This document shows, one piece after another, positions 1-7,905 of a DNA stretch of 7,905 nt (the stretch's first letter is position 1; the number at the start of each line of letters is the position of its first letter). The stretch spans positions 1 through 7,905 of the IMG/VR virus record IMGVR_UViG_2713896795_000006; one strand, written 5' to 3'. A program made the position numbers and the translations under genes. The stretch is from a virus (taxonomy: Duplodnaviria > Heunggongvirae > Uroviricota > Caudoviricetes). The notes below the pieces were generated by a model, which searched no databases, was not told where the DNA came from, and saw only the letters and a program-made list of their open reading frames with translations.

Positions 1-1131
1 TCAAATGACCAGTTTTTTCCACTCCTTGCCGCGTGCATCGTTGTAAATATCGGTCATTTTTTGATTCGAATGACCCAGCAAAATTTGGGTATCAATTCCC
101 TGCTCTCTGAACAATCGCTCTGATAAAGATCTCTGCTCATGGAAAGAGGGTGGGGTGCCATTAGCACGCCAGTTGTAATCCACAGAATCCCGCGCTTTTT
201 TAAATGCAACGGTTAACGTTGCTGGCTTAACCATCCCGCCGCGCTTAGCTGTCCCTTTCGCGTGATGATGGTGCAATAGCCACGGACTAAGAACGCAATC
301 GCGACAGGATGACACCACATCATCCAGGGTGAGATTTAATTTATCGCAACGCAGAGCCAGAGGGATGGCAATCCGGGTTCCTGTTTTTTGCTGTTCGACA
401 TGAAGATAACCATCCCGGATATCCGAAAATTGCATTTTGCAAATATCTGAAAGGCGCTGGCCTGTCATCAGTGCCAGCAGCATACCGCGCTGTAAAAAGT
501 AACCATCCTTTTCCGCTGCGTTATAAATCATCGTCCACTCATCAAAAGTCAGTCGCTGTCTTGATATCCGCACCTGTGGTTTTTTTGCCGATTCTGCAGG
601 GTTAAAGCCTGGCGGGACATCGCCCGTTTGCTGAGCCTCCCGGAAAACATCGATCAGTACCTTCCTGAAAATTTGTCCCATTCTGTTATGTCCTCTGGAC
701 TTGTACTCTTCCAGCACCGATACCACATCCTTTACGGTTATGGCATCTAACGGTCTGGTGCCAAAACGTTCATCAAAAACCCTGAGAGGGGCCGCTTTCT
801 GTTTCAGCGTGTTGAGTTTGATTTCTCCGTTTTCATATCTTTCCTGTTGAATTTTTCTGTAATTATTCAGAAAAATGGAAACGGTTGATGAACCGCCGGT
901 ATCATTAATAATTTTCTCCTGCAGACTGAGCATTTGCTCCATTTGTTGTCTGGCAAGACGGCTGTTCGCTTCTGCTGCAATGGTTTCCGCCAGTTTCTGG
1001 TCAATACTGCCGAGTCCATGATTTTTACCTGTGATGGGATGCCTGTAACGCCAGTAAACTTTGTTATTTCTTTTGTCAAAATACGGAGATAATCCCGGAA
1101 CAGCGGTTTTATATTTTCGCGGGCGTGCCAT
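1..1131 (-). CDS. int: Phage tyrosine integrase (lambda Int-like), 376 aa, complete; stop codon at window positions 1-3
   Basis: ORF track 1..1131 (-). C-terminus ...LLGHSNQKMTDIYNDARGKEWKKLVI closely parallels the lambda Int C-terminus (LLGH...Y..DRG.EW) carrying the catalytic Tyr. N-terminus MARPRKYK...KVYWRYRHPITGK resembles the arm-binding domain of lambda-family integrases. SD-like AGAGGA about 9 nt upstream of the ATG at 1131. The 5' end overlaps the upstream excisionase gene by 23 nt, the typical xis-int arrangement. Confidence 0.9.
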   Translation of the reverse strand: MARPRKYKTAVPGLSPYFDKRNNKVYWRYRHPITGKNHGLGSIDQKLAETIAAEANSRLARQQMEQMLSLQEKIINDTGGSSTVSIFLNNYRKIQQERYENGEIKLNTLKQKAAPLRVFDERFGTRPLDAITVKDVVSVLEEYKSRGHNRMGQIFRKVLIDVFREAQQTGDVPPGFNPAESAKKPQVRISRQRLTFDEWTMIYNAAEKDGYFLQRGMLLALMTGQRLSDICKMQFSDIRDGYLHVEQQKTGTRIAIPLALRCDKLNLTLDDVVSSCRDCVLSPWLLHHHHAKGTAKRGGMVKPATLTVAFKKARDSVDYNWRANGTPPSFHEQRSLSERLFREQGIDTQILLGHSNQKMTDIYNDARGKEWKKLVI

Positions 1132-1357
1132 CTTCCAGTATCCTCTTTAAAGCAGGGTGATCTGTGGCGATCACCTCCGGCTTGTTTACCATTCCGACAA
1201 AGCGAGCTCGCGGATCCACTCGCCAGTGTCTTCCAACTTTTTTGGGGAGAGGAAATATCATTCCGGCTTTAGCGTATTTACTTAACGTGCCCGGAGTAGG
1301 GACCGGATCGCTGAATTCCTCTTTTGCCCACTCAGTGAGCAGAATAAGTCTTGCCAT
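1109..1357 (-). CDS. xis: Excisionase (lambda Xis-like), 82 aa
   Basis: ORF track 1109..1357 (-). N-terminal segment LILLTEWAKEE...GMIFPLPKKVGRHWRV aligns by eye with lambda Xis (LTLQEWNARQ...CRIFPPPVKDGREY). Sits immediately upstream of and overlapping int. No strong SD before the ATG at 1357, so the start is slightly uncertain. Confidence 0.75.
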   Translation of the reverse strand: MARLILLTEWAKEEFSDPVPTPGTLSKYAKAGMIFPLPKKVGRHWRVDPRARFVGMVNKPEVIATDHPALKRILEDGTPAKI

Positions 1358-1420
1358 GAGTATCGTTCGCTAATCATGGTCGCCGCCACTATAGCTGGGG
1401 GCGACGACCGGGGTTGAACA

Positions 1421-3892
1421 TTAAAAATCAGACTGATTCGGGATCAGTTTTTGCCAGATTGCTGAAACGTATTTCGCCTGGTGACGGGCATCATCCAGCG
1501 CATTGTGGCGTATGCCTTCGAATTGAATAGGCGTCCTGGCATCGAAGTCTATGGATTTTCCCAGTTCAATGATTGTGCGTACATCGCGATCGTTGTAGTA
1601 GCGCCACGGGCAGGGGATACCCTGCCGTTCATATGAACGGCGTAAAATCACGTTGTCGAAGTTGGCTCCATTTCCCCAGACCTGAACAAAAAATTCACCG
1701 GAGTTTTCGTCGATAAATTCCCGCAATTGCAGTAGTGCATCATCTAACGGAATTTCATCGGTCAGAATGGCAGATTGCGCCTCACGTGATTGCTTCAGCC
1801 ACCATTTAATGACGTCACGATCAATGACTCCGCCAGCAGTATCCAGATCGATGGTCTTGCTAAATTCCGGTCCCATATCTCCGGTTTGTGGATCGAAAAA
1901 TATTGCGCCTATTGAGATAATCGGGGCATCGGGATTTTTTCCCATGGTTTCAAGGTCGATCATCAGATGAATCCCCGCTCTGCTGGTGGATGTGAGTTTA
2001 TGATGACCGTTCACCTCAATTAAGGGATCTGTCGCCTCGCCAGTTTTATTATCGCTGGCGTGATGCTGATTGCCGCCAGGGTTCTCCTTGTGTGGATGTT
2101 CAGCGCCTTCCATTTCCTCCGGATCATTTTCCTGAACTTCAACCTGATTCTCTTCATCGAATGTTTCCTGGTATGTTGCGTCGCCCATCACCGCGCCACA
2201 ATCAGGGCAGTTGCCGCCACAGCTCTGACCGCAGGCGGTGCAGACTTTTTCCGGTTCCTGTTGCGCTACTGGTTCGGATTGTTTCGTTTCTGGCTCGTTT
2301 TGTAACGCATTTGGGCTGTTTTGTTCCGCTTTTTGGTCGTTCTGTTCCGATTCTTGCTGGTTCTGGTTTACAGAATCGCGGGTTTCAATCCCCTTCACCC
2401 ATTTCGGATCATTCGGGTCGCTAATCCCTGCAACAAATTCTCCGCGAGAGGCAGCAAGCAACTTATCGGCGTCAGGCTGGCTGATATTGGCTGCCTGCAT
2501 AATTTTGTTTACTTCTTCAGCGGTAACTTTTACCGGCTCTGGTTGTGCGGTCGTGTCAGATGCACCAGTATTTTGTTGTGAGCCTGAGTATGTACCGTTT
2601 TTGCGGGCAAAATATTCTTCTTTCGTGATTTCAGTAGCCCCTGCAGTCAGCGCCTTATTCAGACCAGAAAGTTTGTTTGCACGACCATATTTTTCGCCAT
2701 CTTTATCTGTGAAGAGGAAGTAGAACGGCCCCTCACGCTCTACAGATGGTTCGACTTCCACTTTGCATTCGGTTTTTTCGTTGTCCGGAATTGCCGTTTC
2801 CACTGCATCAGTTTCTGGTACTGGCGACGAGAGAGTATCAGTTGCGCTCTGATTTGTTCCTTCATCTTCAAACACGCCCTTTGTAGTCAGGTATTCAGTA
2901 ATGTATTTGTTCAGTGCCACAGGGTCTTTGTGAATGTCGATCGGACGTTCACGGACAAGGCCAAAAATAGTCTGGCGGTCGTAGCGAAGGGCATCAGGCT
3001 GTTTGCGCATTGATGCCGAGATACGCTTCCAGTCTTCGCGGTCGTTGTCGATAACTTCATTTTTTGCCCAGCGATGGATGCTGCCGTCAATGTTTCCGGC
3101 ATCAATGTCATCAGGCCACAGAGCGTAGGCCAGTTCATCATCCAGTGTTTTCCATGTCTGCTTGTATTCGCGACGAATGGTGGCAGTGGCTGGGGGGATT
3201 TTCGCTACTGAGTTTTCAGTGTTCTGCCGGTTGACTCTGGCGCGGGCAAGATCAACAACAGACATGTATTTCCCGGTTTCTTTGCGTTCGGCTTCGCGAC
3301 GTTTTTTCCAGGTGCGTAATTCTGTCTGGATCTCAGGCCATTTTGCACCCGGCTTACATTTATGTTTAACCCACCCGATGGCGAGCAGCTTAAGCTCTGA
3401 ATACATGACGTTAACTTCAGGCATTTTCATCAATGCCTCAACGATATGCCCATCGAATGTTGCCATGTCTTCCTGCAGTAATTCCTGAGCACTAATCACC
3501 ATATCAACGGTGATGTTTTCACATGTACCGAACTTAACCAGGACCGCGTTCTGTACTTCAAGGGACAGCTTGTCAAAATTGACGTTCATCGGATCGGATT
3601 CTGGTTCGACCGGAATAAAGGAAGCGGATTCCTCATCCCAGCGGTTTTCCTGCATATATTCGGTATCCCAGGAGTCGATAGCAGGGCGGGGCATGCCGGG
3701 TTTATCCTCGCAGACAAGAAATTTATAAGCGCAGTCCTGAGCAGCCGGATATTGCTCCAGGAATTGCCAGGTAAATTTGGCACGGGCGCGGCGTTCGTCA
3801 CCGGCTTCAATGGCAGTGGCTACAGCAACTGCACCTTCTTCCTTTATTGCCTGTTCGTCCGGAATGGCGGCGCAAATAAAGACTTTACTCAT
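1421..3892 (-). CDS. Large prophage exonuclease, 823 aa: C-terminal DnaQ/Orn-like DEDDh 3'-5' exonuclease domain, Cys-rich zinc-knuckle, acidic Q/E/N-rich linker; commonly annotated in prophages as exodeoxyribonuclease VIII-like
   Basis: ORF track 1421..3892 (-). The C-terminal about 190 aa carry the three DEDDh motifs: motif I LMIDLETMG, motif II VWGNGANFDNVIL (Orn-like GNSxxxD), motif III IRHNALDDARHQAKY (Orn-like HxALDD...Y). Upstream are a Cys cluster CTACGQSCGGNCPDCG and a low-complexity acidic stretch (NQNQQESEQNDQKAEQNSP...EPETKQSEPVAQQEPEK). It sits between xis and the dicB-like module, where lambda has exo/bet and Rac has recE/recT. SD GAGG about 10 nt upstream of the ATG at 3892. 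Confidence 0.8.
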   Translation of the reverse strand: MSKVFICAAIPDEQAIKEEGAVAVATAIEAGDERRARAKFTWQFLEQYPAAQDCAYKFLVCEDKPGMPRPAIDSWDTEYMQENRWDEESASFIPVEPESDPMNVNFDKLSLEVQNAVLVKFGTCENITVDMVISAQELLQEDMATFDGHIVEALMKMPEVNVMYSELKLLAIGWVKHKCKPGAKWPEIQTELRTWKKRREAERKETGKYMSVVDLARARVNRQNTENSVAKIPPATATIRREYKQTWKTLDDELAYALWPDDIDAGNIDGSIHRWAKNEVIDNDREDWKRISASMRKQPDALRYDRQTIFGLVRERPIDIHKDPVALNKYITEYLTTKGVFEDEGTNQSATDTLSSPVPETDAVETAIPDNEKTECKVEVEPSVEREGPFYFLFTDKDGEKYGRANKLSGLNKALTAGATEITKEEYFARKNGTYSGSQQNTGASDTTAQPEPVKVTAEEVNKIMQAANISQPDADKLLAASRGEFVAGISDPNDPKWVKGIETRDSVNQNQQESEQNDQKAEQNSPNALQNEPETKQSEPVAQQEPEKVCTACGQSCGGNCPDCGAVMGDATYQETFDEENQVEVQENDPEEMEGAEHPHKENPGGNQHHASDNKTGEATDPLIEVNGHHKLTSTSRAGIHLMIDLETMGKNPDAPIISIGAIFFDPQTGDMGPEFSKTIDLDTAGGVIDRDVIKWWLKQSREAQSAILTDEIPLDDALLQLREFIDENSGEFFVQVWGNGANFDNVILRRSYERQGIPCPWRYYNDRDVRTIIELGKSIDFDARTPIQFEGIRHNALDDARHQAKYVSAIWQKLIPNQSDF

Positions 3893-3972
3893 TTTGTTTT
3901 AACCTCATTACAGATTTAAGGGTGAACAAATCCCTGCCATTGCTGGCATCTAAAAATGAAACCGGATATTAA

Positions 3973-4176
3973 TTACGGTGCTGCTTTAAGTCCTGCCGGG
4001 ATTTCGTTATTGTCCATGCGAATAACTTTATCAACCGGATAACAGTTGCCGGGAATTTTCTGTTCCGCTGCGGCAGCCATGCATTCTTTCATTGAGTCAT
4101 GTATACCAATAACAAGATCGACTGGTTCGCCTGTATTAAGAAAAACTGTCAGAACGAGTGCAAATGCTGTATTCAT
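3973..4176 (-). CDS. ydfD: Small hydrophobic-N-terminus protein, 67 aa, YdfD-like (DUF1482-type prophage protein)
   Basis: Internal ATG of ORF-track ORF 3973..4230, giving MNTAFALVLTVFLNTGEPVD...IPGNCYPVDKVIRMDNNEIPAGLKAAP. SD AAGGA 8 nt upstream. The ATG lies 2 nt after the dicB-like stop (TGAcaATG), suggesting translational coupling. Same position as ydfD downstream of dicB in Qin. Family assignment is from memory, not searched. Confidence 0.65.
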   Translation of the reverse strand: MNTAFALVLTVFLNTGEPVDLVIGIHDSMKECMAAAAEQKIPGNCYPVDKVIRMDNNEIPAGLKAAP

Positions 4177-4178
4177 TG

Positions 4179-4361
4179 TCAGCGTCCTTTTTGCATCAGG
4201 CGTAAACGGGCCAGCATTGAAACAATGCATATTTTATTTAATAACTCCCGTTCGTGTTTTCTCTTATTAATGGCATCTTCAGTAAATACAGGGTTACTGA
4301 TTCTGACACCAATTTCAAAACAACCTTCAGACGTATTAACGTTTGGTAATAACGTTTCCAT
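4179..4361 (-). CDS. dicB: DicB-like cell-division inhibitor, 60 aa
   Basis: ATG-initiated part of ORF-track ORF 4179..4466: METLLPNVNTSEGCFEIGVRISNPVFTEDAINKRKHERELLNKICIVSMLARLRLMQKGR, which closely matches my recollection of E. coli DicB (MKTLLPNVNTSEGCFEIGV...). SD GAGGA 7 nt upstream of the ATG at 4361. The longer track ORF begins with GTG at 4466 and has no support. Lies downstream of DicF, as in the Qin dicB operon. Confidence 0.8.
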   Translation of the reverse strand: METLLPNVNTSEGCFEIGVRISNPVFTEDAINKRKHERELLNKICIVSMLARLRLMQKGR

Positions 4362-4530
4362 TATCGCGTCCTCAACAATGAATTTTGTGATGCGGTGCCT
4401 GGTGCCTCCAGGTGACGTTAACCAGTTAACAATTAACGCCGGATACAGAGAATCCACCCATAACACTGTTTTTGGTTTTAACTGTTCCGCGTGCGCTTAG
4501 CCGCATTCACCACATCACAAAATTCACTTT

Positions 4531-4570
4531 AAAAAGGGCGGCAGAGCAGTCACGGAGTAAAACTGATACC
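4531..4570 (-). terminator. Intrinsic terminator forming the 3' end of DicF
   Basis: On the minus strand, GGCGGTA...(loop)...CTGCCGCC stem followed directly by TTTTT (plus 4531-4535 AAAAA). The stem is about 7 bp including one G-U pair. Confidence 0.6.
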
Positions 4571-4588
4571 GCCAAACGTCACCAGAAA
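4536..4588 (-). ncRNA. dicF: DicF small regulatory RNA (53 nt, ftsZ-targeting, Hfq-dependent family)
   Basis: The reverse complement of 4536..4588 reads TTTCTGGTGACGTTTGGCGGTATCAGTTTTACTCCGTGACTGCTCTGCCGCCC and is followed by TTTTT (plus 4531-4535). This matches the DicF sequence as I remember it, including the 3' GC-rich stem (GGCGG...GCCGCC) and U-tract. Position between the ydfB-like and dicB-like genes matches the Qin dicB operon. Confidence 0.85.
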
Positions 4589-4924
4589 ATTGATAACAGA
4601 GGGCGTTGCAGCGAGGTTGTCACTTAAGCGTATGGTCAACCTGACAACCCGGTGTCCTCAACGGGGGAAGGAATAACCCCGCCATACTTACCGCCGCGCC
4701 ATTTCGCGGATTGCCACAACCGGAAGCGCACGGTCGAAGTAATTTAACGACAAACCTCATAGGTGAAGGCCTTCGCCGTACGCTTTTGTGTTATGCCCTG
4801 ACTTTTCAGGGAAATATCCTTTCAGTAAACTGTCAGTGCCGGATTCTTATCCGTGTCCGGCGCACGACCACACGTAGCAGCGTGTTGGTCTCCATTTTTA
4901 ATTCAGCCCTTAATGGAGGATAAA

Positions 4925-5192
4925 ATGGCAAAATTTACAGTCAGGATCGAACTTCGCGATTCCAGTTCCGCTGATTACGATAAGCTTCATGGGATTCTCC
5001 AGAACGATTACAACCTCTTTAGGGAACACCTACCGTCTTCCTAATGCCGAATATATATATTCAAGCAAGAATGAAGACAAAGAATCTGTTGCTGACCTTG
5101 CTGAATCAGTGGCCTCAAAAGTTAAGAAAAATCCCGGAGTTCTTGTTACCGAATCTAATGGGCGCTATGTAAAAAACTTAGATGATGCTTAA
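4925..5192 (+). pseudogene. Small plus-strand gene split across two frames (39-aa ORF 4925..5044 with strong RBS, plus overlapping 67-aa ORF 4989..5192 with no RBS); probably a single gene of about 90 aa disrupted by an indel, or a coupled pair
   Basis: Strong SD GGAGGA (4915-4920) 4 nt before the ATG at 4925 gives MAKFTVRIELRDSSSADYDKLHGILQNDYNLFREHLPSS*. The second frame is open from 4914, but its only start is the ATG at 4989 with no SD; it encodes MGFSRTITTSLGNTYRLPNAEYIYSSKNEDKESVADLAESVASKVKKNPGVLVTESNGRYVKNLDDA. The frames overlap over 4989-5044. Orientation is opposite to all flanking genes. Confidence 0.4.
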
Positions 5193-5335
5193 CCTTCATC
5201 ATCACGACCTGACTCAATAGCGTGCAATGCCAGCCAGATGCGGGCTTCAGTGCCTGCATTTGGTTCCAGTTGCTGGAGGCGTTTTGCATCCTCCAGAAGC
5301 AGAGCGATAACGTGTTTTAATTCTGTTTCGTTCAT
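5189..5335 (-). CDS. Small hypothetical protein, 48 aa (YdfB/YdaG-type position in the operon)
   Basis: Not in the ORF track (below its length cutoff). ATG at 5335 (plus 5333-5335 CAT) preceded by SD AGGTG; the start lies 1 nt after the ydfA-like stop (TAAaATG). Translation: MNETELKHVIALLLEDAKRLQQLEPNAGTEARIWLALHAIESGRDDEG*. Stop at 5189-5191. Confidence 0.55.
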   Translation of the reverse strand: MNETELKHVIALLLEDAKRLQQLEPNAGTEARIWLALHAIESGRDDEG

Positions 5336-5336
5336 T

Positions 5337-5492
5337 TTATTCACCTGAATGTCTTACCAACCAACGACGCGCGCCAGATTCGGTTTTAAACGTTTTGCTT
5401 TTTGTATACGTCATCGCCGTGAACGTTCCGTCCTGGTTGGGAAACACGCCGCACACCAGAGATTCGTTGTTGCCAAGATCGATAGTTTCCAT
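5337..5492 (-). CDS. ydfA: Small prophage protein, 51 aa, YdfA/YdaF-like; first gene of the leftward (dicB-type) operon
   Basis: Not in the ORF track (below cutoff). ATG at 5492 with SD GAGG 4-5 nt upstream; stop TAA at 5337-5339. Translation: METIDLGNNESLVCGVFPNQDGTFTAMTYTKSKTFKTESGARRWLVRHSGE. The length (51 aa) and first-gene position match YdfA of Qin. Homology is recalled, not searched. Confidence 0.6.
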   Translation of the reverse strand: METIDLGNNESLVCGVFPNQDGTFTAMTYTKSKTFKTESGARRWLVRHSGE

Positions 5493-5671
5493 GTTGACCT
5501 CATTTCCCCTTATCGCCGGGGTAGCGGAACAAAAACCTGCTGCATAGTTAAAAGTTGAACCCTGCCGTCACTTTCGAATGCCTCGGGCTGGCTACATTGA
5601 CCCCTGATCACCTGCCGGGTAACTCGAAGTATTGCCCTGCGTTCTGTGGGGCGGGGTGGGTTGGTATTTGT

Positions 5672-5699
5672 AGTTTAATAAACATTAAACATAAGTCAA
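5672..5699 (-). promoter_or_regulatory. Candidate early-left promoter (PL-like) for the ydfA-ydfB-dicF-dicB operon: -35 TTGACT (plus 5694-5699), 16-bp spacer, -10 TAAACT (plus 5672-5677)
   Basis: Minus-strand hexamers are identical to those of the candidate rightward promoter at 6687-6716. An operator-like motif AAAACTAAAC at 5703-5712 resembles the AAACACTAAAC repeats in the divergent region. Sequence-based prediction only. Confidence 0.4.
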
Positions 5700-5722
5700 G
5701 CAAAAACTAAACCACAGAGCAC

Positions 5723-5761
5723 AACAACCGCAACGCTTTTGATAAAGTCGTTGCGGTTGTT
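5723..5761 (-). terminator. Strong hairpin 22 nt downstream of the parE2-like stop; probable terminator or insulator of the repressor-antitoxin-toxin operon
   Basis: Perfect 13-bp stem AACAACCGCAACG (5723-5735) with CGTTGCGGTTGTT (5749-5761), loop 5736-5748, extendable by CTTT/AAAG with one bulge. Flanking U-rich stretches on both strands are imperfect, so this may act as a weak or bidirectional terminator. Confidence 0.45.
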
Positions 5762-5783
5762 ATGTTTCTATTGGTGGTGAAAG

Positions 5784-6062
5784 TTAGGGAAACTGGCGTC
5801 TTGCGTGGATCACGTTTACTACTTCAACGCTTGATGTTGTTACGCGGTATAGAACTATATAGTTAGGGTGGGCCACAATCTCACGCAAGCCAGGAACTCT
5901 GTCGCTTGGTGGGTATAAATACGGGTGTTCGGATAACGGTAACACACAACCCCTTAATCGCTGCCATAAGCGCTCTGCCGCATCTATGTCGAAACGAGCA
6001 ATATAACTAGTTATATCATCTAGGTCGGTATCTGCGCTTTCAAGCCATAACACGGGTAACAT
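5784..6062 (-). CDS. parE2: ParE/RelE-family type II toxin, 92 aa (ParE2-like)
   Basis: Internal ATG of ORF-track ORF 5784..6158: MLPVLWLESADTDLDDITSYIARFDIDAAERLWQRLRGCVLPLSEHPYLYPPSDRVPGLREIVAHPNYIVLYRVTTSSVEVVNVIHARRQFP. The C-terminus (YIVLYRV...VEVVNVIHARR) is typical of ParE/RelE toxins. The start lies 1 nt after the antitoxin stop (TAAaATG). Confidence 0.9.
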   Translation of the reverse strand: MLPVLWLESADTDLDDITSYIARFDIDAAERLWQRLRGCVLPLSEHPYLYPPSDRVPGLREIVAHPNYIVLYRVTTSSVEVVNVIHARRQFP

Positions 6063-6063
6063 T

Positions 6064-6255
6064 TTACTGCTTGCTCCGTTCCTTGCGCATTTTAGCAAAG
6101 CGTTCTGCCATTCTGCGCTCAACTTCGTCATGGGGAATTGCTGGGCGCGGATCTGCAAGGCTCGTTGCTACTTTCGCACGCAGCCATTCGTTGTAACTGT
6201 TTTCTTGTTCAATGGTATCAAACTCAGAAACCATTGGTGAAAGGGCTCTATTCAT
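6064..6255 (-). CDS. paaA2: Small antitoxin, 63 aa (PaaA2-like)
   Basis: Internal ATG of ORF-track ORF 6064..6309: MNRALSPMVSEFDTIEQENSYNEWLRAKVATSLADPRPAIPHDEVERRMAERFAKMRKERSKQ. Strong SD GGAGGA 5 nt upstream of the ATG at 6255. Matches my recollection of the 63-aa PaaA2 antitoxin of the E. coli O157 paaR2-paaA2-parE2 system. Sits directly upstream of the ParE-like toxin. Confidence 0.85.
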   Translation of the reverse strand: MNRALSPMVSEFDTIEQENSYNEWLRAKVATSLADPRPAIPHDEVERRMAERFAKMRKERSKQ

Positions 6256-6275
6256 GTTTCCTCCGGTTTTATAAC

Positions 6276-6647
6276 TCAGGCGCGGCGGCATTTTTGCGCC
6301 GCAATCCATCTCGCTATGAGATCTTCCATTGATTCTTTTTTCTGTTTTAACTCGCTGATTATCTGGCGTTGCTCATCCTCAGGGAAGGCTGAAAAAATCT
6401 GCAATAATTCCAGTTGATTAGACGTTAATCCTGCATGCGGTGGAGAAACCTCTGGTTGTTCTGCGTATTCCGCATCCAGATACCCCTCCGGCATCCCGTA
6501 TGTTTGCTCTATTCTTCTGGCTGCCTTTTCTCCAAACGAGGCTCTCCCACTCATTAGCTGAGATAGGTAGCTCTTCTCTTTGGGTGGCAGAGTTTTATCT
6601 TTAAACCACTCCTTGAGACGTAAACGGCGAATTTCTTTTTTTTGCAT
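6276..6647 (-). CDS. paaR2: HTH (XRE/cI-like) transcriptional repressor lacking a peptidase domain, 123 aa (PaaR2-like; C-terminal region DicA-like)
   Basis: ATG at 6647 within ORF-track ORF 6276..6710 (the track start at 6710 is GTG). N-terminal HTH-like segment KSYLSQLMSGRASFGEKAARRIEQTYGMPEGYLD. C-terminal LTSNQLELLQIFSAFPEDEQRQIISELK resembles the DicA C-terminus (LSPKELELLELFNALPESEQ...). No SD before the ATG, and a -10-like GATAAT lies 7 nt upstream, consistent with a leaderless, cI-like transcript. First gene of the three-gene operon. Confidence 0.8.
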   Translation of the reverse strand: MQKKEIRRLRLKEWFKDKTLPPKEKSYLSQLMSGRASFGEKAARRIEQTYGMPEGYLDAEYAEQPEVSPPHAGLTSNQLELLQIFSAFPEDEQRQIISELKQKKESMEDLIARWIAAQKCRRA

Positions 6648-6744
6648 GTGGTAATTATCTTTAGTAATCACTAAACAAGCAAATACTTGACTTAATGGTT
6701 TATTAAACACTAAACTTGCAAAAAAACACTAAACCGAGGAAGGT
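6648..6744. promoter_or_regulatory. Divergent promoter/operator region between the repressor and the cro-like gene: three direct repeats AA(A/T)CACTAAAC, candidate PR (-35 TTGACT 6687-6692, -10 TAAACT 6711-6716) and candidate leaderless PRM-like promoter (minus strand; -35 TTGCTT = plus 6677-6682, -10 GATAAT = plus 6654-6659)
   Basis: CACTAAAC occurs at 6669-6676, 6708-6715 and 6727-6734 (spacings 39 and 19 bp); the second copy overlaps the PR -10 and the third the predicted start region. The 97-bp AT-rich interval lies between divergently oriented regulator genes. Sequence-based prediction only. Confidence 0.5.
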
Positions 6745-7047
6745 ATGACATTAAAAGAGTTTATTAAATCATTGAGGGTTGGTGATGCCAAGAAATTCGC
6801 GGCCAGACTTGGTGTATCGCCATCTTACCTATCGCAAATGGCGTCTGGACGAGCAGCGATATCTCCAACCCGCGCCCTTATGATCGAATCTGCGACGGAA
6901 GGCCAAGTAAGTAGGGCGGAGCTACGGCCCCATGATTGGGAGATTATTTGGCCTGAGTATGCGCGCGGTATTCGTTTGGGGCAAACGCATGTAGCTCATG
7001 CTGAAGGTGATTGTAGTGCATGCTTATCTGATGGAGTTGATTCATGA
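6745..7047 (+). CDS. ydaS: Cro-like HTH regulator, YdaS family, 100 aa
   Basis: ORF track 6745..7047 (+). Strong SD GAGGAAGG 4 nt upstream. Segment LGVSPSYLSQMASGRAAISPTRALMIESATEGQVSRAELRP matches the YdaS-type HTH pattern (LGVSP...P...IE.AT.G.V....LRP). Stop overlaps the next gene start (ATGA). Confidence 0.85.
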   Translation: MTLKEFIKSLRVGDAKKFAARLGVSPSYLSQMASGRAAISPTRALMIESATEGQVSRAELRPHDWEIIWPEYARGIRLGQTHVAHAEGDCSACLSDGVDS

Positions 7048-7469
7048 AAATCAAGCATGAACACATCCGCATGGCGATGAATGCCTGGGCGCATCCGGAC
7101 GGCGAGAAAGTTCCGGCTGCAGAGATTACCAAAGCGTATTTTGAACTGGGAATGACGTTTCCGGAACTGTACGACGATTCACACCCAGAAGCCCTGGCTC
7201 GCAATACTCAGAAGATTTTCCGCTGGGTGGAGAAAGATACTCCTGATGCGGTTAAAAAAATTCAGGCGTTGTTACCAGCGATCGAAAAGGCAATGCCGCC
7301 ACCGCTGGTGGCCCGAATGCGTAGTCACAGTTCGGAGTATCACCGGGAGATTGTCGAGCGACGGGATCGGCTGGTGAAAGATATCGATGAGTTCGTTGCA
7401 TCAGCGATCGTTCTGTTCGACCAGATGAATCGCGGTGGTCCGGCAGGAAATGCCGTGGCGGTGCATTGA
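7044..7469 (+). CDS. ydaT: YdaT-family protein, 141 aa (putative CII-like regulator or toxic protein of Rac-type prophages)
   Basis: ORF track 7044..7469 (+). N-terminal MKIKHEHI... is characteristic of YdaT as recalled. Start codon overlaps the ydaS stop (ATGA), indicating translational coupling. Confidence 0.8.
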   Translation: MKIKHEHIRMAMNAWAHPDGEKVPAAEITKAYFELGMTFPELYDDSHPEALARNTQKIFRWVEKDTPDAVKKIQALLPAIEKAMPPPLVARMRSHSSEYHREIVERRDRLVKDIDEFVASAIVLFDQMNRGGPAGNAVAVH

Positions 7470-7539
7470 CTGGCAATATTTATACTGGATCGCTTCCGGT
7501 AGTGCGTGATTAAGAGATTCGGTATCAGAAGAGGCAATT

Positions 7540-7905
7540 ATGGCCGCATTACCATACATGCAACTGTACATAGCTGATTACCTGGCCGACACCATGCATT
7601 TGTCAGCAGAGGAGCATGGTGCGTATTTGTTGCTGATGTTCAATTACTGGCAAACAGGAAAGCCAATACCTAAAAACAGGCTGGCAAAAATTGCCCGTCT
7701 GACTAACGAGCGATGGGCTGATGTTGAACCATCCTTGCGGGAGTTTTTTTGCGATAACGGCGATGAATGGATGCACCTTCGGATTGAGGAAGATCTGGCA
7801 TCAGTCAGGGAAAAATCAATAAAAAAATCGGCTGCGGGAAAAGCATCTGTTCAGGCCAGGAGAAACAGAAAGGAATCATATGCTCAAACAAAACACGAGC
7901 GAAAT
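7540..7905 (+). CDS. ydaU: DUF1376/YdaU-like prophage protein, N-terminal 122 codons; 3' end beyond the window
   Basis: Not in the ORF track because no stop lies in the window. ATG at 7540 with SD GAAGAGG 5 nt upstream; open to the window end. Translation MAALPYMQLYIADYLADTMHLSAEEHGAYLLLMFNYWQTGKPIPKNRLAKIARLTNERWADVEPSLREFF... fits the DUF1376 signature (Y.aDYL.DT.HLS..EHGAYLLL...YW..G.P.P). Confidence 0.8.
   Translation, partial: MAALPYMQLYIADYLADTMHLSAEEHGAYLLLMFNYWQTGKPIPKNRLAKIARLTNERWADVEPSLREFFCDNGDEWMHLRIEEDLASVREKSIKKSAAGKASVQARRNRKESYAQTKHERN

Follow-up and report, generated by a model that had tools for sequence, protein, structure and literature searches.

The closest described system to the locus analysed here is the immunity region of prophage CP-933P in Escherichia coli O157:H7 EDL933. 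Jurenas et al. (2021, mBio, PMC8630535) named its early-left promoter PL933P and reported that a PL933P-gfp fusion is repressed about 100-fold by PaaR2 or YdaS, that the footprints of PaaR2 and YdaS cover 18-bp palindromes of the consensus GTTTAGTAA between paaR2 and ydaS, that paaR2 is leaderless, with the MQKKE N-terminus of its product sequenced, and that PaaR2 octamerises like CI; the open reading frames (ORFs) downstream of PL933P were given no function by the authors (PMC8630535). We analysed a 7,905-nt stretch of Caudoviricetes DNA (IMG/VR record IMGVR_UViG_2713896795_000006, positions 1–7,905; the window) with regard to two adjoining minus-strand elements. The first, at 5672–5712, is almost certainly the early-left promoter-operator (PL/OL) of a CP-933P-type lambdoid prophage. 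The second is the 173-nt PL leader upstream of the ydfA-like gene (5493–5665), in which the PL transcript very probably carries a conserved structured RNA at its 5' end.

The early-left promoter and its operators

As in CP-933P, PL lies downstream of paaR2-paaA2-parE2, carries the same hexamers as the rightward promoter PR and is associated with the same operator family. Its −35 TTGACT (5694–5699, minus strand; unchanged in CP-933P of O157:H7) and −10 TAAACT (5672–5677, minus strand) are separated by 16 bp and are identical to those of PR (TTGACT, 6687–6692; TAAACT, 6711–6716; spacer 18 bp), and the flanking contexts CTTGACTTA and GTTTATTAAAC occur at both promoters, as an earlier sequence-only reading of the window had noted. 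The PL hexamers read away from the repressor operon, after the parE2 stop at 5784, and form the only minus-strand promoter-like site between parE2 and ydfA. Against the one O157:H7 genome (L001) used for all O157 protein identities given here, the window repressor is identical to PaaR2 at 121 of 123 residues (98%; the N-terminal 65 residues are the same as in CP-933P PaaR2), and the 97-bp paaR2-ydaS intergenic region with the OR operators matches CP-933P at 96 of 97 positions (99%). The PL core (GGTTTAG...TAAACTA) has three differences from O157, none of them in the hexamers or in the 7-bp operator arms, and the published PL933P cloning primers map to window positions 5666–5782 with one mismatch each. 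This near-identity to a tested element, together with the published repression, supports the earlier interpretation that one repressor controls a PR-like and a PL-like promoter and that the repressor-antitoxin-toxin operon lies between the two operator sets; both the control and the layout are already in the literature for CP-933P (PMC8630535), and it is from this orthologous fragment that PL activity and its about 100-fold repression are taken. As far as promoter and operators are concerned, the window holds nothing new: they confirm the published bistable switch of CP-933P, with its toxin-antitoxin pair embedded between OL and OR.

Two operator sites were recognised at PL. OL site 1 (5673–5690) is an 18-bp palindrome, GTTTAAT-AAAC-ATTAAAC, with perfectly complementary 7-bp arms, which covers the −10 and the spacer, scores 12/14 against the operator consensus and shares the core GTTTAWTAAAC with PR (6698–6708). 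OL site 2 (5695–5712) joins a perfect right half, ACTAAAC (5706–5712), to a weak left half over the −35 (arm scores 4+7 of 14). The fourth operator-like motif previously noticed beside PL, AAAAACTAAAC (5702–5712), is indeed one mismatch away from AAACACTAAAC and represents the right half of OL site 2, but the strongest site at PL, the palindrome at 5673–5690, had been overlooked. The OR operators occupy 6659–6676, 6698–6715 and a half-site at 6728–6734, together with PR in the region 6659–6734. When 18-bp sites were scored with 7-bp arms GTTTAGT and a 4-bp centre, four sites reached at least 11/14 (5673–5690, 5695–5712, 6659–6676 and 6698–6715), all at PL or PR; the expectation is 0.36, and none of 200 shuffles gave more than 2. 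Likewise, 10 of 30 half-site matches scoring at least 7/9 fall within 2% of the window, namely the PL and PR regions. The five matches of the 11-mer AAACACTAAAC at up to two mismatches, all on the plus strand (5680, 5702, 6666, 6705 and 6724), are confined to two patches of at most 70 bp, one at PL and one at PR. A further operator-type near-palindrome, GTTTATTAAAT, was observed at 6759–6769, within the ydaS start and about 45 bp past the PR −10.

Transcription from PL is predicted to start at about A5665 (5663–5667, minus strand), 7 nt after the −10. From there to the ydfA ATG at 5492 the leader measures 173 nt, in agreement with the roughly 170 nt proposed earlier. Similarity between heteroimmune prophages begins at this predicted start, at ATACCAACCC, which places the edge of the conserved leader at 5665–5667, and the published PL933P-gfp fragment stops at window position 5666.

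Several points weigh against this assignment of PL and OL. The published PL repression data come from plasmid reporters with overexpressed regulators, and the PaaR2 footprints were not made on OL (PMC8630535). Rapid amplification of 5' cDNA ends was limited to PR and PRM, so that the PL start of CP-933P was left unmapped (PMC8630535), and a start near 5665 is a prediction for the window and CP-933P alike. In addition, the paper names OL1-3 (PMC8630535) where two OL sites are recognised here, OL site 2 is only half-symmetric, and the number of AAACACTAAAC matches is not significant alone (5 against 2.4 ± 1.6 expected; 23 of 200 shuffles reach 5), the significance of the operators resting on placement and clustering instead of this count. 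It is nevertheless most improbable that the PL site is a distal operator set only, serving looping or octamerisation with OR and holding no firing promoter, with transcripts of ydfA and the genes behind it supplied by read-through out of the paaR2 operon or by a different promoter: such a role would suit the octamerisation of PaaR2 (PMC8630535) and a −10 that matches the consensus at just 4/6 positions, but a near-identical fragment drives gfp repressibly (PMC8630535), no other minus-strand promoter-like site is present between parE2 and ydfA, a long hairpin separates the PL site from parE2, and in about 12 other immunity classes a consensus −35 stands equally far ahead of this leader.

Based on the preferred reading as PL/OL, we propose the following scenario, in which (i) sigma-70 RNA polymerase would start near 5665 on the minus strand; (ii) the transcript would run through the leader, ydfA, the ydfB-like gene, DicF, dicB, ydfD, the exonuclease gene, xis and int; (iii) in the lysogen, PaaR2 (6276–6647) would bind the palindrome at 5673–5690 over the −10 and spacer and the site at 5695–5712 over the −35 and, since the OL sites and the OR sites, roughly 1 kb apart, are of one sequence type, would block initiation at both promoters; (iv) the Cro-like YdaS can repress PL as well. 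The exact start and the protein assigned to each operator site are predictions in this scheme.

The arrangement resembles OL/PL of phage lambda, in that a repressor operon lies between two operator sets of the same consensus, each overlapping an outward promoter, and early-left genes (kil-type, exo, xis, int) follow downstream. In contrast to lambda, whose repressor and operator sequences are unrelated to those of the window and which has three full OL palindromes compared with the two OL sites recognised here, the window has a toxin-antitoxin pair in the place of rexAB and neither an N gene nor nutL. With the Qin prophage of K-12, the window shares the operon type ydfA-ydfB-ydfC-dicF-dicB behind a cI-like repressor gene (the DicA/DicC system). 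The Qin dicA-ydfA gap (L002 2343–2508) contains a PL-like promoter, TTGACC-17-TAATCT, with TGTTAG-type palindromes. However, the repressor and operators of Qin differ from those of the window, and the shared sequence is confined to the roughly 37 nt preceding ydfA; these include a small hairpin described below, whereas the large hairpin of the leader is absent from Qin.

Distribution and structure of the PL leader

At a coverage of at least 80%, the leader (5493–5670) is found in 3695 of 5426 complete E. coli genomes, in up to 8 copies per genome and with 83–99% identity among the E. coli copies. It is far more widespread than the immunity type of the window, which is carried by about 595 of the 5426 genomes; the best match comes from a pigeon isolate (99.5% identical). 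When five prophages with four different repressors were aligned, including Rac of K-12, in which the leader lies between racR and ydaG, similarity was seen to begin abruptly at ATACCAACCCACCCC, 8–14 nt past the −10 of each. Among 119 IMG/VR contigs with the leader 22-mer, the 70 nt upstream fall into at least 12 unrelated promoter/operator classes, each with a TTGACx or TTTACx −35, a 16–18-bp spacer with a palindrome of its own, and a −10 that lies about 8–14 nt ahead of the shared leader of about 165 nt. In most classes the PL 8-mers recur as a dense cluster 0.6–1.5 kb upstream, at the divergent repressor/cro promoters. Because unrelated PL/OL classes are joined to one and the same leader, the cassettes must have been swapped many times at one junction, and because this junction is the predicted +1 (about 5665), it speaks for the promoter assignment as well as for the start site.

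What follows the leader varies as well. The first gene is ydfA in the window, ydaG/ydaF in Rac and a gene for a Kil-like protein in one contig (L249). Where the window has ydfA and the ydfB-like gene, by contrast, O157 has unrelated DNA, so the 3' edge of the leader is also a mosaic junction. This O157 segment (L001 4220–4720) lacks ydfA and ydfB right after the leader and has an ECs_2282-family gene on the opposite strand. Further downstream, a division inhibitor and an exonuclease are encoded in every context examined.

Outside E. coli, leader homologues were detected by genome scan and blastn in four more genera (Serratia, Arsenophonus, Symbiopectobacterium and Superficieibacter), as well as in viral contigs. 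The 16-mer used to scan genome contigs was too short, most of its 120 matches being due to chance; about a dozen real homologues came from blastn, and no more than four sequences were gained from metagenome and additional viral scans. In at least 50 loci the leader RNA is present as one copy per locus, always at PL; the copy in Rac of a K-12-like strain lies at L003 2492–2607. The exception, and the sole multi-copy case, is an Arsenophonus-type prophage with two copies about 2 kb apart on the same strand (L143 5902–6020 and 7942–8000; L252 2641–2759 and 4681–4799).

All homologues follow a common plan: their own promoter, the 5' arms of helices P3, P2 and P1, the loop GCAAUACYNCGAGUUAC, the 3' arms and the invariant tail (U)AAGUAGCCAGCCCGAGGC-N4-GAAC-AUG-ACGGC. 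In the window, the corresponding three-helix hairpin (P3-P2-P1; 5600–5657, minus strand) begins about 9 nt after the predicted start and carries the conserved apical loop GCAAUACUUCGAGUUAC (about 5619–5635). The covariance model of the leader, R1, matches the window at 5558–5675 on the minus strand with 98.9 bits (E = 6e-28), its sole match there with filters off. The arms of P1 pair by lineage as GCAGGG/CCCGGC, CACGAAG/CUUCGUG, UACGAAG/CUUCGUA, ACUGAG/CUCAGU, CGGCAGG/CCCGCCG, CACCAGG/CCCGGUG or CGCCAGG/CCCGGCG, and those of P2 as CCAC/GUGG, GGCAGAA/UUUUGCC, GGCAAU/AUUGCC, CGCAU/AUGCG or CGUA/UACG. The helices also contain G-U pairs, which fit the PL-sense strand only.

The leader structure is supported by covariation. 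In a MAFFT alignment (A3), 68% of the cells are paired compared with 56% after shuffling (0/500 as high), the covariation score is 0.37 compared with 0.18 (0/500) and at most 0.14 when partners are slid, and 13 of 19 pairs show changes on both sides. The corresponding values for a model-guided alignment of 51 distinct sequences (A4), which unlike A3 is biased to the model by construction, are 74% compared with 60% (0/500), 0.333 compared with 0.115 (0/500) and at most 0.08, with changes on both sides in 17/19 pairs. Folded singly, 17 of 20 sequences adopt the same architecture, the exceptions being the window copy and two Arsenophonus copies. The minimum-free-energy fold of the whole window leader is no more stable than its shuffles (z = +1.65); the window copy has two 1-nt insertions that alter its own fold, which is why the structure signal is seen only with divergent homologues. 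Rfam 15, searched up to E = 1, returned no match to the leader, its only matches in the window being DicF and a sub-threshold STnc100 elsewhere. Nor did a limited literature search (leader sequence strings; rac/kilR; HK639/put) find a description of this RNA.

Downstream of the hairpin, the near-invariant tail (GUAGCCAGCCCGAGGC-N9-start) and a short ORF occupy 5548–5595 on the minus strand. In the window, the short ORF (5548–5571) opens with GUG at 5571–5569 and has 7 codons and a stop at 5550–5548; all other variants seen start with AUG. Its Shine-Dalgarno sequence, start and first codons (M-T-A) are kept, whereas length, frame and stop vary: elsewhere it extends from 6 to more than 38 codons and is sometimes fused in frame to ydfA, for example as a coding sequence for 78 amino acids in phage Tritos (L126 4089–4325). 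Given this variation in length and sequence, translation of the short ORF is only a prediction; it may matter that it is translated, while its peptide probably does not. The leader as a whole was rejected as coding sequence, since indels interrupt each of the two long ORFs that span it. A small hairpin, CCCC-GGCGAUAA-GGGG (5506–5521, minus strand), lies just upstream of the ydfA Shine-Dalgarno sequence (GAGG, 5501–5498). Judged by eye only, its arms vary (CCCC/GGGG, GCCG/CGGC, GCCAG/CUGGC, GCC/GGC), and the hairpin is kept in Qin of K-12.

Possible roles of the leader RNA

The sequence-only reading had suggested that the leader could hold an antitermination or processing element. A conserved, covariation-backed structured RNA is present, but it is not of the nut type: neither a boxA (CGCTCTTA-like; no minus-strand match at up to two mismatches in 5493–5665) nor a boxB-like element was found, Pfam and PHROGs revealed no N-like protein among the ORFs between PL and int, and a nut site was discarded as a candidate on these grounds. 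Among other candidates, the Rho terminator trac of rac lies within racR and not in the leader (PMC4150792). An ops/RfaH element, a sigma-70 pause element and a loop-tail pseudoknot were dropped on inspection by eye, since key bases appeared absent or the geometry implausible. We tentatively propose that the RNA of about 115 nt (5558–5675, minus strand) represents an undescribed class of cis-acting element that governs early-left elongation, whether by antitermination or as a Rho-linked switch, and we put this forward as a possibility rather than an expectation.

One possible role, still to be regarded with doubt, is that of a translational or Rho-linked attenuator, in which the short ORF (GAGG-N9-AUG), gated by the hairpin, would control the access of Rho or the ribosome-binding site of the first gene and would thereby stop leaky PL transcripts from yielding toxic Kil or DicB. 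The Shine-Dalgarno sequence and the start are invariant across five genera, apart from the GUG of the window, and the differences between two of the E. coli types in codons 3 and 4 (GCA/GCG, GGG/GGA) are at the wobble position. A toxic kil, kilR or dicB gene follows in every context examined, and kilR of rac is silenced by Rho and NusG (PMC4150792, PMC5793797). On the other hand, an attenuator of this kind is difficult to reconcile with an ORF that varies between 6 and more than 38 codons, conserves neither frame nor stop and is sometimes fused to ydfA, with the reading of the conserved GCAGCAGG...ACGUUCC block in different frames, and with the location of the known rac terminator within racR instead of the leader (PMC4150792).

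A role as elongation modifier, comparable to nutL of lambda or putL of phage HK022, is a rather unlikely possibility. The leader would then permit N-free read-through of the DicF terminator and of Rho-dependent sites to dicB, exo, xis and int, and may fill the nutL (lambda) or putL (HK022) slot in N-less lambdoid prophages such as Rac, CP-933P and their relatives. Its position is consistent with this, since HK022, also an N-less lambdoid phage, has in putL a folded RNA that begins within a few nucleotides of the PL start. The PL/OL of HK022 (L255 8270–8380, minus strand) is similar in sequence to the promoters of the L004/L106 class, with whose repressor the CI N-terminal domain of HK022 shares 46% identity over 99 residues; however, HK022 has putL after the start, where the L004/L106 class carries the leader. 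From the sequences, this looks like a module swap at +1. The conserved structure with compensatory changes, starting at about +10 of the transcript, the lack of an N-like gene and the intrinsic terminator of DicF within the operon also argue for such a modifier. Against it stands the absence of any likeness to put in sequence or structure: the R1 model has no match in HK022 (best score 10.1 bits), HK022 was not matched when the leader was compared with phages by blastn, and put consists of two stem-loops, whereas the window leader is one long three-segment hairpin with a Shine-Dalgarno/AUG tail. As judged from these comparisons, the putL and leader RNAs are unrelated, and a putL-like activity of the leader would be an argument by analogy. 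Furthermore, there is no second copy on the PR side (the R1 match at PL is the only one in the window), and Qin of K-12 lacks the leader hairpin.

It is unlikely that the hairpin acts as an RNA processing or stability element, i.e. as an RNase III or RNase E site or as a 5' stabiliser of the dicB-type transcript. DicF is freed from the dicB-type operon by RNase III and RNase E, and the imperfect stem of about 17 bp is long, both of which speak for processing. RNase III, however, needs no conserved loop sequence of 15–17 nt, and a 5' stabiliser would be expected closer to the 5' end than the about 10 nt at which the hairpin starts. Finally, we consider it very unlikely that the leader has no function of its own and is a linker whose similarity is maintained by frequent homologous recombination among prophage modules, since, for all that both its edges are mosaic junctions and the E. 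coli copies are 83–99% identical, the homologues of other genera have diverged and yet preserve the helices by two-sided changes, the sense-strand-only G-U pairs included, and the shuffled and slid controls score far lower.

Neighbouring genes and biological implications

The genes downstream of PL have early-left functions, with coordinates from the ORF listing and family assignments from Pfam unless stated otherwise. All on the minus strand, they are the ydfA-like gene, the first of the operon (DUF1391, PF07151, E = 6e-29; 5337–5492), a ydfB-like gene from the ORF listing (5189–5344), the small RNA DicF inside the operon (Rfam RF00039, 76.7 bits; 4536–4587), a dicB-like gene (about 4179–4367), a DUF1482 (ydfD-like) gene (3973–4176), the gene for an exonuclease of 823 amino acids (1421–3892), xis (1109–1357) and int (1–1131). 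DicF is full-length, has its own terminator and lies upstream of the dicB homologue. The STnc100 match (37.7 bits, below the gathering score of 47) is at 4329–4538 on the minus strand, directly after DicF and overlapping the 5' region of dicB. Antisense within the PL operon, two overlapping plus-strand ORFs of 39 and 67 amino acids (4925–5192) resemble a single gene split by a frameshift; at the corresponding position, related prophages carry a hypothetical gene on the opposite strand (L001 4941–5105, L005 3199–3477).

Upstream of PL, the minus strand encodes the parE2-like toxin (Pfam ParE_toxin PF05016; 5784–6065; 91/93 identical to O157), the paaA2-like antitoxin (Pfam PaaA2 PF21217; 6064–6255; 62/63) and the paaR2-like repressor of 123 amino acids, which starts with MQKKE (6276–6647). 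A PaaA2-type antitoxin, a ParE toxin and an upstream regulator are thus combined in one operon, as expected for a three-component paaR-paaA-parE toxin-antitoxin module. On the plus strand follow the Cro-like ydaS (Pfam YdaS_toxin/HTH_3; 6745–7047; 96/100) and the CII-like ydaT (Pfam YdaT_toxin; 7044–7469; 127/141). An exact copy of the YdaT box, TTGATT-N6-AATCAA (PMC9986795), was observed at 7037–7054 (TTGATTCATGAAAATCAA), spanning the ydaS stop and the ydaT start. Between the parE2 stop and PL, an inverted repeat with 21-nt arms (86% complementary; 5720–5764) probably forms the end of the paaR2-paaA2-parE2 transcript or insulates it. No U-run comes directly after the repeat on the minus strand, while a U-rich tail follows it on the plus strand, and it may either terminate the toxin-antitoxin transcript or stop antisense transcription; in other immunity classes, the corresponding position is taken by a T-run terminator.

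In summary, at least 12 different immunity systems share one folded RNA, attached to each of them right at the transcription start and ahead of operons that encode the division poisons KilR, DicB, Kil and DicF. Control of elongation, termination or translation by this RNA, if real, would help to account for the timing or silencing of early-left genes in N-less lambdoid prophages and for the unleashing of these genes by defects in Rho or NusG. On the same condition, E. coli K-12 itself would be seen to possess a widespread RNA element, located between racR and ydaG of Rac.

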